5,506 nucleotides of DNA, taken from the IMG/VR virus record IMGVR_UViG_3300029359_000078, one strand, 5' to 3'. The notes under the pieces are model-generated. The model was not told where the DNA came from. It saw only the letters and a program-made list of their open reading frames with translations, and searched no databases. Made by a program: the position numbers and the translations under genes. Origin of the DNA: a virus. Positions 1 to 5,506 of this stretch are shown here, piece by piece. Position 1 is the first letter of the stretch. Each line of letters starts with the position of its first letter.

Positions 1-123
1 AACACCGGCATTATATCTAGAACGTATCTCCATCAGCATCATTCCTTTCGACATTAGCATACTGTAAAGCGTGACTAATAAAATTAGGCATGTCATACGG
101 CTTAAGAAGACCTTTTTCGTCAT
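1..123. repeat. Terminal redundancy, left copy. It is identical to 5384-5506, so the circular 5,383-nt genome was linearised with an overlap.
   Basis: Base-by-base comparison of 1-123 with 5384-5506 shows 123/123 identity, and the repeat runs to the very last base of the window. ORFs run continuously across the junction (VP5-like 3' end and VP3 5' end). Confidence 0.95.
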
Positions 124-295
124 CAAACTCACCTAAACAATACAAGTGGAAGTCGCCGAGATGCTGACTAACAAGACTCCGACTATCATTACACAAATCA
201 CTAAAAGAACGGCCAGCAACCAAGTCATTCTGGGCAAAGTACGGCGTATTGAAGCACTGTGCTTTATCATCCAAGATTGAATAAACTTTAAGCAT
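17..295 (-). CDS. Small conserved gokushovirus non-structural protein, VP5/ORF5-like (92 aa)
   Basis: ATG at 293-295 is preceded by AGGAG with a 10-nt spacer (minus strand aaAGGAGctgttacgaaATG); TAG stop at 17-19. MLKVYSILDDKAQCFNTPYFAQNDLVAGRSFSDL...GEFDDEKG resembles, from memory, the short VP5-type proteins encoded next to VP4/VP3 in gokushoviruses. The 3' end overlaps the VP3 start by 17 nt in another frame. The last 104 nt are duplicated at 5400-5506 by the terminal overlap. Confidence 0.7.
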   Translation of the reverse strand: MLKVYSILDDKAQCFNTPYFAQNDLVAGRSFSDLCNDSRSLVSQHLGDFHLYCLGEFDDEKGLLKPYDMPNFISHALQYANVERNDADGDTF

Positions 296-438
296 TTCGT
301 AACAGCTCCTTTTAAAACATCAAGAATAAAATCAAAAACAGCAGTAACAATAACGGTCAAAATACGTACAAAAATAGTTGAAATCACTCCTTTCCGAGAG
401 GGAGTGTTGCTTGGATTAAACAGAAGAGGATCGCTCAT
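133..438 (-). CDS. Hypothetical 101-aa ORF with two hydrophobic segments; its 3' two-thirds are overprinted on the VP5-like gene (speculative)
   Basis: ATG at 436-438, TAG at 133-135. The first 47 codons fill the otherwise empty 216-nt VP4/VP5 gap. Hydrophobic stretches are VISTIFVRILTVIVTAVFDFILDVL and WLLAVLLVICVMIVGVLLVSI. Unlike every other gene here, it has no Shine-Dalgarno within 5-12 nt of the ATG (the leader is ttttttttatatttaaaATG). Alternate frames of coding DNA often look hydrophobic by chance. Confidence 0.25.
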   Translation of the reverse strand: MSDPLLFNPSNTPSRKGVISTIFVRILTVIVTAVFDFILDVLKGAVTKCLKFIQSWMIKHSASIRRTLPRMTWLLAVLLVICVMIVGVLLVSISATSTCIV

Positions 439-511: not shown

Positions 512-1429
512 CTACTCATACATGTCCATATCATCATGCAAACATCGAACAAGCTTAGTTAACTTACGAGCTTTCAAACGCTCTTGAACCTGGGCAATTT
601 CATACTCTTCCGTTGTCATCGACTCATCGCGACAATACTTGTCTTGACGAGCTTTTTTGACTTTCTCGTACAAATCGGGATTATCTTTTTCAAGCAAAGA
701 ATCATAATACGCGGGCGGCTTACATGTCACGCCGTCGCGAACAACAATAAAGTCGTTAGGGTAAACTTGACTTTTATACTTTTCATACCAATCATGGCCG
801 AGACCGGGCATACGCGACATCAAAACAAAGGGCTGCAAAGACTCATCAACATCATCACCTTTTTGTTTTTTCATAACATATCGCGCGACGTAAGCACATG
901 ACTCAAACGTAACGCTGCCGATCAAACTGAATCCATAGGGCCACAGCTTTTCTAATGTCGGACTGCGATAATACTGGAAACCGTGCTTAACTGTGTGAAT
1001 CATCAAATCTGGAAAACGCAGTCCGAAAATAACTGCATGATAGTGCGGCCTTTTAAACTTATGGCCGTACTCGCCACAAGCAAAGAAACGAAGACCATTG
1101 CCAAACTTCTTACGAAGACGCTTCATGAATTTTTGAAAAACATCCTTATGAATTTTACCATCTTCCGGCAAATATTCGGGACTATAAGTAAGCGTTAAAA
1201 ATGATCCAACACGACCGGCCATCTCAAACTCATGTACACAGCGCATGGCCCATTGTCGGCTATACTCAAGCCGACAGCCGACACACTGACCACACGGAAC
1301 ATAAATTGTTTCCGGAAGCTTACCAAGTGGACGCCAAGCATTACCATAGTTTGCCGTTAACGACCGCTTACCAGTCTCTTTATTAATTTCTTTGGAGTGC
1401 CACATAGGTATTGGGTGGTAACATGGCAT
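512..1429 (-). CDS. Replication initiation protein VP4 (HUH rolling-circle endonuclease, phiX174 gpA-like), 305 aa
   Basis: ATG at 1427-1429 follows GGAGG with a 6-nt spacer; TAG at 512-514. Motifs read directly: FLTLTY (RCR motif 1), RPHYHAVIFG (HUH, codons at 1037-1045), and CAYVARYVMKK with two tyrosines spaced Y-x3-Y (codons at 890-892 and 878-880). The last matches the phiX174 A active-site pattern YVAKYVNKK as I remember it. The N-terminal CGQCVGCRLEYSRQW Cys cluster is typical of microvirus Rep. Confidence 0.93.
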   Translation of the reverse strand: MPCYHPIPMWHSKEINKETGKRSLTANYGNAWRPLGKLPETIYVPCGQCVGCRLEYSRQWAMRCVHEFEMAGRVGSFLTLTYSPEYLPEDGKIHKDVFQKFMKRLRKKFGNGLRFFACGEYGHKFKRPHYHAVIFGLRFPDLMIHTVKHGFQYYRSPTLEKLWPYGFSLIGSVTFESCAYVARYVMKKQKGDDVDESLQPFVLMSRMPGLGHDWYEKYKSQVYPNDFIVVRDGVTCKPPAYYDSLLEKDNPDLYEKVKKARQDKYCRDESMTTEEYEIAQVQERLKARKLTKLVRCLHDDMDMYE

Positions 1430-2061: not shown

Positions 2062-3105
2062 TCACTTGAAAATTTGTGTGACAAGGCCCAGCGGGCTAGC
2101 ATCAACAAGGCCTTTCGCGTTGCCGAGAATACGAGCTAAATATTCATAGGAGCCTTGCGGGGTAACGCCAGAATAGCGATTCTGAGTTTGATACTGTTTT
2201 AAATCTATTTGGGTACGCACACGATTTACAAACTTTAGCGCATTATCCTCAGTCTGACCTTTAGCTTGCAAGTACTCAACCAGCGAGCGAGCACTAAGCT
2301 CGCCTTGTACATACTTCTCAGTCATCATTTTAACTTGATTCAAGCTTGTTTCAGAATCAATTCGTAAAACTTCATGCACATTCTTCTCAATATCACTATC
2401 AATTTTTGCAATTTCATGCGGCAATAAAGCATTAATCCGATGCGTCTGAGCGCCGAGATTAGCGGTTGTCGCATTTGCGACATCGGTCTGAGGACCGCTA
2501 ATGTACCGAGTTTCAGCATTGTATTTGTCAATTTCAGACTGTGCTTTAGCAGTGCCGACACCTTTCGTAAAATCAGCGCTGGCTTGTAAATTATTCGCAT
2601 TAGCAAGTAGCTGCAGTAATTGAGACTCTAACATAGCCTTCTTGTAATCTGCTTCTGTTGACGCAGCACGACCTTCCTGCGTCTTTTTATATGTATCTGC
2701 ACTAAGATTCAAATTTTGCTGCTCTAAATTTTTTTCTTGCTGCTGCTGAATCTTGCGATTTGTCTTAGCAGAATACATACCAGTCATAGTATTGATACCA
2801 TTAGAAACATCCGAACCATAACCAGTATACGCATTGGAAGAATAAGAAGCAGTCGCGCCGGCAGGTGTAGACGCGCCTTGACCGCCCATGCCGGAAAGCA
2901 TGGGATTTAAGCCAGCTTTACGTAAATCTTCAATCTCACGCTGGTGGGCGGTAGAAGACATTTTTTCTTGCCAATCGCGAGTTTTTTGTGCTTCCTGCGA
3001 TTGCCACTGCATTTGCTCACGTGAAAGTGAAGCCTGGGCATTAGCCGACTTATGGCCCGACCATATACCAAGAGCAGCACCAGCAACCGACGACAACCAA
3101 CTCAT
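2062..3105 (-). CDS. Minor capsid / DNA pilot protein VP2, 347 aa
   Basis: ATG at 3103-3105 follows AGAGGTGAT; TGA at 2062-2064. The gene starts 13 nt after the VP1 stop. It has a hydrophobic N-terminus (MSWLSSVAGAALGIWSG), the REIEDLRKAGLNPML motif that I recall as the conserved core of gokushovirus VP2, and a Q/N/A-rich coiled middle region. Confidence 0.85.
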   Translation of the reverse strand: MSWLSSVAGAALGIWSGHKSANAQASLSREQMQWQSQEAQKTRDWQEKMSSTAHQREIEDLRKAGLNPMLSGMGGQGASTPAGATASYSSNAYTGYGSDVSNGINTMTGMYSAKTNRKIQQQQEKNLEQQNLNLSADTYKKTQEGRAASTEADYKKAMLESQLLQLLANANNLQASADFTKGVGTAKAQSEIDKYNAETRYISGPQTDVANATTANLGAQTHRINALLPHEIAKIDSDIEKNVHEVLRIDSETSLNQVKMMTEKYVQGELSARSLVEYLQAKGQTEDNALKFVNRVRTQIDLKQYQTQNRYSGVTPQGSYEYLARILGNAKGLVDASPLGLVTQIFK

Positions 3106-3118
3106 ATATCATCACCTC

Positions 3119-4817
3119 TTAGAAATGGTCAAGGAGACCAGGAACACCGTAGACAGGCATCGGACGAGCACATTTTAGATCTAAATACGCATCAAGATAA
3201 AATTGCGGTTCAGTCTGCACCGCACTAATGCGCTTAATAGCTTGATAGGAAGCCTGATCTTGAATAAACTCACCGTTAAGAGCAGGGAGCGCATCAAATT
3301 TCTGGGCAAAGTGCCAAACATCCGTACTCTGCGCATACGTCGAGCGCATCTTCCCAGTAATGATAGACGGATGGTAACGACATTCGGCGTAACGTTCTTG
3401 ATAGCCGAAGACCTGGTTGTCAGCCTCAGTACCTTGTGCGTAAATTTCTTTATTAAGAATCGCTTGCTCACCTAAATGAGCAAAAGTAGGCCAATAAAAT
3501 TCTTCTCTCGTTTGGCGAAGCCATGTCTTATTGATACCCTGCTGGTAACTCAAATCAGTACGGATATTACACAAACCGATTACAATACCGTGCTCCGTAA
3601 ACGATTTATTAAAGCCATGAATACGCGTACTCATCAAAGCATAGGCAGATAAGTTACCTTGCGGAGAAATAGTGTCCGTAGAAGACGTCTGCTGAACAGG
3701 ATTGAACATAATCGGGGTTGAATCACCGCCGAGGTATTCGCTGCGCTGCAAACGAGCATCCGGCGAAATAATACCAAAATGCGAACGAATAATTTCAGTA
3801 TATCTCGTACCACCACGAGCGTCTTTTTCATAGAATCGTTGAAGCGCAAAAGCAGAACGTAAGCTATTAATTGTAATAGATGCCAAGTCAGAAACAACAG
3901 CTCTACCACCTTGAGACAAATCCGCAACAAGACCAGACTCGCCAACAGGGCCAATACCAGTCAAAGCGTTAGATGTAGGAAGAGAACCATCGCTATATTG
4001 ATAATAAGGCGTGTCATGATTATCGCCGCGAAGGCCGAAACTACCTAAACGACGATCGCCGAAATGGAAAATACTAGCAGTAGGGTCAGAAGCACCAACA
4101 GGGACATTACCAATCAAACTAGCATCACCGGCCAAAGATATTTCCACACCGGGGCCTTTTTGTGGCCAAGGAAGCGCGCTTGTAAAATAATCATGACGCT
4201 TACCGCGATAAAAACATTGAGCAGTCGCAGCATCTTGCGTAGCATCGCCACCATAAGCATCGTCTTCTGATGAAGTCGAAGAAAGGGGAGCACCAGTCTG
4301 AATAGACACAGCGTTTTGAAGATTTTCGTCGCGAAACCAATCGTTGTAGATCTTCCAATAGGCTCTAAACGGAAACGCACTTACGGATAACTTATTTTTT
4401 ACATCAGTCGGAAAACCGAAATAATCCCATAACGTTTGAACCTGTGCATCAGTAGCCGTCATCTGAGGTACTTCATATTCTGTGCTCTGATAGCCAGCAA
4501 GCGGGTTTTCACCGTTCAAGCGGGTTTTCACCGTTGAACTCTTTCCAATGCTTCCATAACAAGCGATATGGAACGAAAAAAAAGAAAGTATCCATATAAG
4601 CATTATCCATCGCCGGAACAATAGGCGTAGCCATACGACCAAAAAGCGTTGCTTTACAATTAAAAGTATCGCCAGGGTAAACTTCGTCTATATAAAACGG
4701 AACAAGTCGACCTGCATCCAACGTAGTCTTAACCGTATGAGAACGCTTGAAAGAAGAACGCGGAATTTGGTTTTGCGGGCTTATAGCAAAGTTATGCTGA
4801 GTAGCTCTTTTTGACAT
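3119..4817 (-). pseudogene. Major capsid protein VP1 (phiX174 F-like jelly-roll capsid), interrupted by a +19-nt frameshifting tandem duplication
   Basis: ATG at 4815-4817 follows AGGAG with a 10-nt spacer. The N-terminal fragment (track ORF 4509..4817) reads MSKRATQHNFAISPQNQIPRSSFKRSHTVKTTLDAGRLVPFYIDEVYPGDTF...MDNAYMDTFFFFVPYRLLW, a typical gokushovirus VP1 N-terminus. The remaining 459 aa lie in a different frame (track ORF 3119..4642, from NGENPLAGYQ onward) and end at TAA 3119-3121. The span is 1699 nt (not divisible by 3); minus 19 nt it is 1680 nt, or 559 aa. Confidence 0.9.
4498..4535. repeat. Perfect 19-bp tandem duplication (caagcgggttttcaccgtt x2) inside VP1
   Basis: 4498-4516 and 4517-4535 are identical and directly adjacent. 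The flanking bases differ (g4497 vs t4516; c4517 vs g4536), so the unit is exactly 19 nt. Confidence 0.97.
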
Positions 4818-4978: not shown

Positions 4979-5416
4979 CTAACTGTTAACATCATTGGCT
5001 GCATTATTATCCGTGTTCTCCGTATGATTATCAGACTCAATAACGGTCTTAGTAGCAAGACCCATGGCCACAAGCTGGTCTAAATTTTCCGGGTTATCAA
5101 CGAATTCCAAGAAAGCAGCTGGGTCATAGTTGAATTGCTTGCGGACTTCCAAAGGCAAATTATCAAAATTACTCTTAGCTTCAATCATGCGATTGTACAT
5201 CTCTTGCGCATTATCTGGCAGCGATGCGAAATCACCAAAAACAGGCTGTGCAGGCTGACCGTCACCATGGAACGTAGGCATAACGCCAGAAGAGTCATAC
5301 ATTGAAACGATATAATTGATATCTGCTTCATCTTTAAACTGCTGCTGCGTCATGGAAGGGGCAGAAGACTTCCACCCTTCTCGAACACCGGCATTATATC
5401 TAGAACGTATCTCCAT
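4979..5416 (-). CDS. Internal scaffolding protein VP3, 145 aa
   Basis: MEIRSRYNAGVREGWKSSAPSMTQQQFKDEADINYIVSMYDSSGVMP...FGDFASLPDNAQEMYNRMIEAKSNFDNLPLEVRKQFNYDPAAFLEFVDNPEN resembles, from memory, the chlamydiaphage/gokushovirus VP3 scaffold family. I chose the start at ATG 5414-5416 (equivalent to 31-33) because AAGGAA lies 8 nt upstream. The track's 175-aa version begins at the window edge and overlaps the VP5-like gene. TAG at 4979-4981. Confidence 0.85.
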   Translation of the reverse strand: MEIRSRYNAGVREGWKSSAPSMTQQQFKDEADINYIVSMYDSSGVMPTFHGDGQPAQPVFGDFASLPDNAQEMYNRMIEAKSNFDNLPLEVRKQFNYDPAAFLEFVDNPENLDQLVAMGLATKTVIESDNHTENTDNNAANDVNS

Positions 5417-5506
5417 CAGCATCATTCCTTTCGACATTAGCATACTGTAAAGCGTGACTAATAAAATTAGGCATGTCATACGGCTTAAGAAGACCTTTTT
5501 CGTCAT
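5384..5506. repeat. Terminal redundancy, right copy (identical to 1-123)
   Basis: 123/123 identity with the first 123 bases of the window. Confidence 0.95.

Follow-up and report, generated by a model that had tools for sequence, protein, structure and literature searches.

The virus record IMGVR_UViG_3300029359_000078 of the IMG/VR collection, a stretch of 5,506 nucleotides (nt) referred to below as the window, contains a complete circular gokushovirus genome in which the gene for VP1, the major capsid protein, is interrupted by a perfect tandem duplication of 19 base pairs (bp). The duplication shifts the reading frame of VP1, recurs in independent assemblies, is absent from the relatives of this phage, is young, and is not accompanied by recoding signals. 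It probably represents a genuine, very recent mutation in the VP1 gene of a human-gut gokushovirus, that is, a loss-of-function slippage mutant in a clonal population. The duplicated allele itself is most likely non-functional.

The duplication and its effect on VP1

A single perfect tandem array was located by Tandem Repeats Finder at positions 4498-4535 (period 19, 2.0 copies, 100% matches, unit CAAGCGGGTTTTCACCGTT), in agreement with the back-to-back duplication described in the initial annotation of this DNA. On the coding (minus) strand the sequence across the array reads ...GAGTTC/AACGGTGAAAACCCGCTTG/AACGGTGAAAACCCGCTTG/CTGGC. The repeat does not continue into the flanking bases and consists of exactly two copies without microhomology at its ends. 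The chance expectation of a perfect 19-nt tandem repeat in 5506 nt is ~2e-8. The VP1 region contains the following features, the first two of which are open reading frames (ORFs) with lengths in amino acids (aa):

4509..4817, minus strand: VP1 N-terminal ORF, 102 aa, from ATG 4817 to the premature TGA 4509-4511; Pfam Phage_F profile positions 4-88.
3119..4531, minus strand: VP1 C-terminal ORF, 470 aa, from GTG 4529-4531 to TAA 3119-3121; Phage_F profile positions 90-501.
4517..4535, minus strand: upstream repeat copy (first on the coding strand), unit AACGGTGAAAACCCGCTTG, encoding N95-G-E-N-P-L100 plus one extra base.
4498..4516, minus strand: downstream repeat copy, unit AACGGTGAAAACCCGCTTG, which in the +1 frame encodes NGENPL followed by AGYQSTEY... 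of the VP1 body.
4517..4519, minus strand: TTG in frame with the VP1 body, 5 nt upstream of the TGA; a candidate restart codon that would give (M)NGENPLAGYQ...
4576..4583, minus strand: run of eight T on the coding strand (T8, FFFF codons), intact in the window; T9 in related genomes with frameshifted VP1.

Frame 0, opened by the ATG at 4817, ends with ...WKHWKEFNGENPLER at the TGA after 102 aa, and the remaining 459 residues of VP1 are encoded in the +1 frame down to the TAA at 3119 (open frame 3119..4642, minus strand), so that the shift falls at codon 101. When one copy is deleted, a continuous VP1 of 559 aa is obtained from 1680 nt (559 codons plus stop). Both the frame analysis and the effect of the single-copy deletion had been given in the initial annotation and were reproduced from the ORF list and the translations, as was its prediction that a +1 shift inside the repeat would add six residues.

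The identification of the gene as that for VP1, the major capsid protein, is borne out by matches to the Pfam family PF02305 (Phage_F) in both halves, with E 1.9e-30 for the N-fragment and E 6.9e-128 for the C-fragment. The repaired 559-aa protein, whose comparison with gokushovirus VP1 had been proposed as a check, matches the capsid proteins of gokushovirus EC6098 (PDB 8DES, E 2.2e-170), which is the solved structure nearest to it, and SpV4 (9CGM) by sequence. An AlphaFold model of a VP1 that is 96% identical to that of the window (P0001; predicted local distance difference test score, pLDDT, 84) superimposes on the same two structures with template modelling (TM) scores of 0.88 for 8DES and 0.87 for SpV4 9CGM.

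Tandem duplications by slippage or template switching are a classical class of frameshift mutations and often occur at the base of small hairpins, as formulated in Streisinger- and Ripley-type models. The duplicated unit can fold on itself as a small hairpin (CAACGG-TGAAAAC-CCGcTTG), and across the new junction the stem becomes longer (GTTCAACGG/CCGcTTGAAC). Compared with shuffled controls this hairpin is not significant (z -1.2 to -1.5), and it is at most a weak hint as to the origin of the duplication.

Reproducibility across assemblies

Eight further contigs were retrieved by exact look-up of the 102-aa stub and of the pilot protein VP2. They comprise one JGI contig (3300029779), three contigs from ENA (ERZ28635200, ERZ28635669 and ERZ28635176, from BioSamples SAMN05971540, 42 and 43), and four Logan contigs (SRR5056730, SRR5056980, SRR5057054 and SRR5057108), with SRR5056980 being a human-gut metagenome (PMC13355591). 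The two-copy array is present in 8/8 contigs. The seven full-circle contigs (1 JGI, 2 ENA, 4 Logan) agree with the window at every one of its 5383 genomic nt, and the eighth, a partial ENA contig of 2521 nt, is identical to the window over all covered bases. Terminal overlaps of 122, 55 and 30 nt mark the contigs as products of three pipelines, which used assembler k-mer lengths (k) of 31, 55 and about 120 on at least four sequencing runs from at least three BioSamples. Since no 30-mer occurs twice in a 38-nt array of period 19, the copies cannot be miscounted by de Bruijn assembly at k of 31 or more, and the junction must therefore be present in the reads. The duplication is thus neither confined to one assembler or read set nor beyond resolution by k-mers, and the assembly or consensus artefact that had been ranked first in the initial annotation is contradicted by the recovery of the same two-copy path from all of these data. 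Exact-pattern scans for the two-copy junction and for the one-copy junction (with variable gap) found neither in the IMG/VR viral contigs or the JGI metagenome collection, which evidently lack these samples.

A technical origin at an earlier step, with the duplication arising during library preparation or sequencing, or with one faulty template contaminating the libraries of the study while the natural phage carries one copy, is considered very improbable. In its favour, all samples belong to one study block (SRR5056730-5057108; SAMN05971540, 42 and 43), the zero differences among the genomes are what one shared DNA source would produce, adapter sequence was left in one contig (L014), and frameshifts in metagenome-assembled genomes (MAGs) of microviruses are usually treated as assembly errors (PMC9239249). 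However, every read set yielded the same two-copy path with three assemblers and different k, and a polymerase error would be expected as a minority species rather than as the consensus of at least four libraries. Cross-contamination, in turn, could explain why the samples share the sequence. It would not account for the lesion, since the source sample would then really contain it.

The adapter sequence is an Illumina remnant, GCTCTTCCGATCT, at the start of the ENA contig L014 (L014:1-13). A further protein, P0134, was considered as another truncation exactly at NGENP and rejected: its tail, DRKSVV followed by a stop, translates GATCGGAAGAGCGTCGTGTAG and results from adapter read-through at a contig end.

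A single copy in all relatives

Whether related genomes hold one NGENPL-type segment had been suggested as a check, and a single copy was found in all 10 near relatives that were read at the DNA level (87-96% nucleotide identity). These include seven GenBank genomes of Microviridae/Gokushovirinae from pig faeces (~87%), in which a single NGENPL segment runs straight into AGYQSTEY, and the closest intact genomes from public assemblies, L016 (96.2%), L017 (96.2%) and L018 (94.1%), with one copy each. The flanks of the relatives match the window across the junction with at most three substitutions in the 100 aligned columns shown. On the protein level, 120/120 closest VP1 sequences contain a single 15-residue segment of the NGENPLAGYQSTEYE type with fixed length, which in 105 of them is exactly NGENPLAGYQSTEYE. 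The closest genomes are records of pig- and human-gut Microviridae sp. (MT135275, MG945505 and others), and the 19-nt duplication at codons 95-101 of VP1 occurs in none of the relatives.

A hypervariable region was observed elsewhere in VP1, at window positions ~3899-4150 (residues ~217-300). It is common to the window and L016-L018 (94-96%), cannot be aligned with the 87%-identical relatives from pig faeces, and is modelled with low confidence (pLDDT <50 at residues 240-280). This region presumably is the gokushovirus threefold protrusion loop.

Age of the event

The two copies are identical, and both carry GGT at codon 96, where L016, L017 and L018 have GGC. As this synonymous, lineage-specific substitution is present in both copies, the duplication must be younger than the substitution. 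Window-specific changes in VP1 number only three synonymous and three non-synonymous ones, with the latter affecting residue 12 and the hypervariable loop; no further lesion is present, and the rest of VP1 shows no decay. A set of about 15 billion proteins does not contain the exact repaired VP1. All contigs with the 102-aa stub belong to the same clone, and no diverged or diversified descendants were found. The duplication thus is very recent, and, as no diverged carriers were found, long-term evolutionary maintenance of the allele is not indicated. A genuine, recently arisen slippage variant, placed second in the initial annotation, is best supported by the one-copy relatives, the shared derived base, the absence of other lesions and the lack of diverged descendants.

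Like spontaneous slipped-strand or template-switch duplications, the array in the window consists of perfect head-to-tail copies, with one copy in the relatives and a derived base in both copies. It differs from this class in the lack of end microhomology, in a hairpin that is not significantly stable, and in that the allele dominates several samples, as a lethal mutation would not usually do.

Recoding as a possible rescue route

Rescue of full-length VP1 by ribosomal recoding could in principle proceed through a +1 shift in the repeat (at CUU_G or CGG_UGA) or through a 19-nt hop of the peptidyl-tRNA between identical codons. The +1 product would have 565 aa and contain ...NGENPLNGENPLAGY... 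in the case of the CUU_G shift or ...NGENPLERENPLAGY... in the case of the CGG_UGA shift, with the junction peptides NGENPLNGENPL and NGENPLERENPL, whereas the hop from copy 1 to copy 2 is predicted to restore the exact wild-type protein of 559 aa. Several features would suit such a mechanism: the duplication itself supplies, at a distance of 19 nt, matching codons for take-off and landing (AAC, GGU, GAA, AAC, CCG, CUU), the UGA stop two codons past CUU could pause the ribosome, and the segment of residues 93-111 varies between 12 and 26 residues in 151 diverse VP1s (19 here), so that six additional residues would remain within the natural range. The local sequence argues against it. The zero-frame codons TTC AAC GGT GAA AAC CCG CTT GAA CGG TGA offer no good +1 re-pairing, with the best option, CUU to UUG, ending in a G.G clash next to an A-site codon (GAA) that is not slow. 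There is no Shine-Dalgarno-like stimulator at the site, the take-off codon and the stop are not adjacent, and the local RNA fold is no better than that of shuffled controls (z -1.2 to -1.5; -1.22 for the local fold). Furthermore, no frameshift was found at this site in the 10 near genomes or the 120 closest VP1 proteins, and thus there is no conservation. Unprogrammed hops and shifts, known from the hopping studies of Weiss, Gesteland and Atkins, typically occur at frequencies of around 1% or less, far too rarely to supply a capsid of 60 subunits. Recoding therefore appears highly improbable as a source of VP1.

Compared with the established systems, the window resembles T4 gene 60 bypassing and prfB-type +1 shifting in having matched codons around a short gap, a zero-frame UGA and a need for the +1 frame downstream, but it lacks an adjacent stop, a slippery codon, a Shine-Dalgarno-like stimulator, a significant stem-loop and conservation. 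More specifically, the P-site codon capable of +1 re-pairing beside a slow A-site and the conserved shift site that characterize programmed +1 shifting in prfB and antizyme genes were both missing; of the characteristics of T4 gene 60, the matched codons are present, but the stop immediately 3' of the take-off codon and the stable stem-loop are not. Without slippery site, stimulator or conservation, programmed recoding is unlikely. This agrees with the initial annotation, which had discounted a +1 shift for want of a slippery or stimulatory signal; the codon, fold and conservation checks led to the same judgement. Its account of rescue routes was incomplete, as it overlooked the 19-nt hop and a restart of translation at GTG 4531 or TTG 4519.

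A possible capsid protein in two pieces

In the case of such a restart, translation would terminate at the TGA 4509-4511 and resume at GTG 4531 or TTG 4519 to produce a C-fragment of 470 or 466 aa, respectively. Both fragments, separated within a loop of surface type, would keep the full NGENPL segment and would assemble non-covalently into a working jelly-roll subunit. From the arrangement of codons, termination-reinitiation could make this C-fragment: the GTG is located 7 nt after GGAAAGAG and the C-terminal ORF overlaps the N-terminal ORF by 23 nt, and the TTG lies 5 nt upstream of the stop. The 470-aa ORF, which begins V/M-KTRL-NGENPLAGYQ..., was called independently by two gene callers. 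Compared with the AGGAG/AGGAGG sites that precede the real genes, GGAAAGAG is much weaker, and the TTG has no Shine-Dalgarno sequence ahead of it.

Regarding the protein, residues 95-111 form a coil between a helix (91-94) and a strand (112-115) in the AlphaFold model of the 96%-identical VP1. Given this coil and the length variation of the segment among the 151 diverse VP1s, the loop position could plausibly tolerate an insertion or a chain break. On the other hand, the loop is nearly invariant in the close clade (the 105 identical sequences among 120 mentioned above), which suggests constraint, and a split occurs in no diversified lineage. The allele is dominant in all eight assemblies, as would be expected if the two pieces worked. 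An unrelated strain, L019 (Logan SRR28432013), carries a perfect out-of-frame tandem duplication of 11 bp (AAAGTACAGAG twice, ~3930-3951) about 30 nt downstream of the position of the window's duplication. Both duplications fall within the loop of residues 95-111, and in L019 the TGA of ORF1 overlaps the native Met113 ATG in a stop/start arrangement (ATGA). The coincidence in the same loop is weak evidence, since it would arise by chance in roughly 15% of cases given how the fragments were found. A literature search on frameshifted capsid genes of Microviridae and gokushoviruses found no split microvirus capsid protein, and we know of no natural or engineered one. Taken together, a working two-piece VP1 is judged unlikely, less so than recoding. 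It is likewise unlikely, if only slightly less so, that the duplicated allele is alive by any of these routes, with either a restart-made two-piece VP1 or a shift or hop supplying enough capsid for the phage to be infectious and hence for the allele to dominate in every sample.

Other VP1 frameshifts in the clade

Additional stubs were obtained from the 90%-identity cluster of the 102-aa stub, in which truncated VP1 N-fragments occur on complete-length contigs of other strains. Apart from L019, these stubs point to the FFFF run. P0130-P0132 shift directly after it, and L020, the one read at the DNA level, has T9 in place of T8 (~1035-1045). P0130 and P0132, from two other strains and read only as protein, are 96-aa VP1 stubs on full-length contigs that share a shifted tail, ...FFFFRSISLALEALERVQW followed by a stop, and P0125 and P0127 shift at the same run. 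The T9 variants could reflect sequencing error in the homopolymer or true variation, or they may be alleles that slippage during transcription rescues. For the window, such slippage at its T8 run was also considered as a rescue of VP1 and rejected, because the run lies 14 codons upstream of the duplication and the conserved VPYRLLWKHWKEF would be read out of frame.

Kirchberger, Martinez and Ochman (2022; PMC9239249) reported genes split by frameshifts from multiple microvirus MAGs, attributed the splits to the assembly and used Ns to patch them. As in these cases, two ORFs in the window take the place of one hallmark gene, and the genome is otherwise complete. The window differs from them in that its lesion was reproduced by three pipelines on several read sets and hence resides in the sequenced DNA. 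Capsid genes broken at the consensus level thus recur among metagenome-assembled microvirus genomes, which favours the view that defective genomes get sampled.

Persistence of the duplicated allele

The 19-bp duplication in VP1 probably arose by replication slippage or template switching. The shift at codon 101 leaves a 102-aa N-terminal stub as the annotated product and most likely abolished capsid function. One clone, uniform over its entire 5383 nt, was recovered in several libraries of a single study, and it presumably persisted for a short time without a capsid protein of its own. Within a carrier cell lineage it may have lasted as double-stranded replicative-form DNA, or a co-infecting intact phage may have complemented it; alternatively, the DNA of one sample may have spread between libraries.

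Several points weigh against a loss-of-function mutant. A capsid-null phage cannot spread by itself, and a perfect tandem repeat should revert readily, but 8/8 assemblies, from at least three BioSamples, follow the path with the duplicated allele. Such dominance would be easier to explain if the allele kept some function, and the site is in a loop where restart codons overlap the stop. Moreover, no evidence of integration was obtained from the circular contigs or from a search for dif-like sites, none of which scored above chance, and no helper genome was identified.

With regard to lysogeny, all full-length contigs close into circles and have no host flanks. At best, the phage genome matches a dif-like site with 10-11 mismatches over 28 positions, as do shuffled controls. 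No match was found in E. coli genomes and plasmids, and there were no close relatives in 185,579 GTDB species genomes. An integrated prophage state of the dif/XerCD type thus is not seen for the window phage. Distant gokushovirus VP1s (50-55% identical) are located on long bacterial contigs (L024 at ~7600-12300, L026, L027, L028 and L099), of which L024 is a 797-kb contig of Phascolarctobacterium faecium DSM 14760; the other hosts are Sutterella, Intestinirhabdus and Desulfovibrionaceae. Their location suggests that these copies are integrated prophages. A search for direct repeats of at least 18 nt flanking the gokushovirus copy in L024 found none. Given these integrated-looking distant relatives, a cell-associated lifestyle would not be foreign to the group.

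Genome organization

The genome has a size of 5383 nt, or 5364 nt if one repeat copy is removed. All genes are on the minus strand in the order VP1-VP2-ORF59-VP4-VP5-VP3, with ORF59 coding for 59 aa. VP1 is the sole broken gene; the remaining genes are intact, and strong Shine-Dalgarno sites precede the genes. The features outside VP1 are:

2062..3105, minus strand: VP2 (DNA pilot protein), 347 aa, intact; length equal to that in relatives.
512..1429, minus strand: VP4 replication initiator, 305 aa, intact; Pfam REP_ORF2-G2P.
17..295, minus strand: VP5, 92 aa, intact; Pfam Phage_ORF5.
4979..5416, minus strand: VP3 internal scaffolding protein, 145 aa, intact; Pfam Chlamy_scaf.
5384..5506, no strand: assembly overlap, a copy of window 1-123 by sequence identity.

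The identity of the terminal 123 nt represents the overlap of a circular assembly. The phage belongs to the Gokushovirinae, based on the Phage_F match, the small one-strand circular genome with VP1, VP2, VP4, VP5 and VP3, and the gokushovirus capsid fold. With the other members it has in common the gene order, the coding on one strand, the circular 5.4-kb genome and the Phage_F matches in both halves of VP1. An additional ORF of 101 aa (window 133-438, minus strand) overlaps VP5 in a different frame and lacks a Pfam match; a gene of the same length was called at the corresponding site in L016.

Significance of the duplicated allele

Both the type of mutation and the type of gene are already known, and the duplication stands out only in that it is reproducibly dominant from sample to sample; going by the present evidence, it ranks as a well documented but ordinary spontaneous mutation. 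Genes split by frameshifts in microvirus metagenomes are usually dismissed as assembly noise, but at least some of them are real alleles that occur at consensus frequency in bulk gut metagenomes. Catalogues of such genomes may therefore hold defective ones, and the DNA of a capsid-null microvirus can last long enough for repeated sampling. If the allele were functional after all, it would reveal an unexpected tolerance of a jelly-roll capsid protein to splitting or recoding and would give the Microviridae their first natural case of a major capsid protein that is split or recoded.

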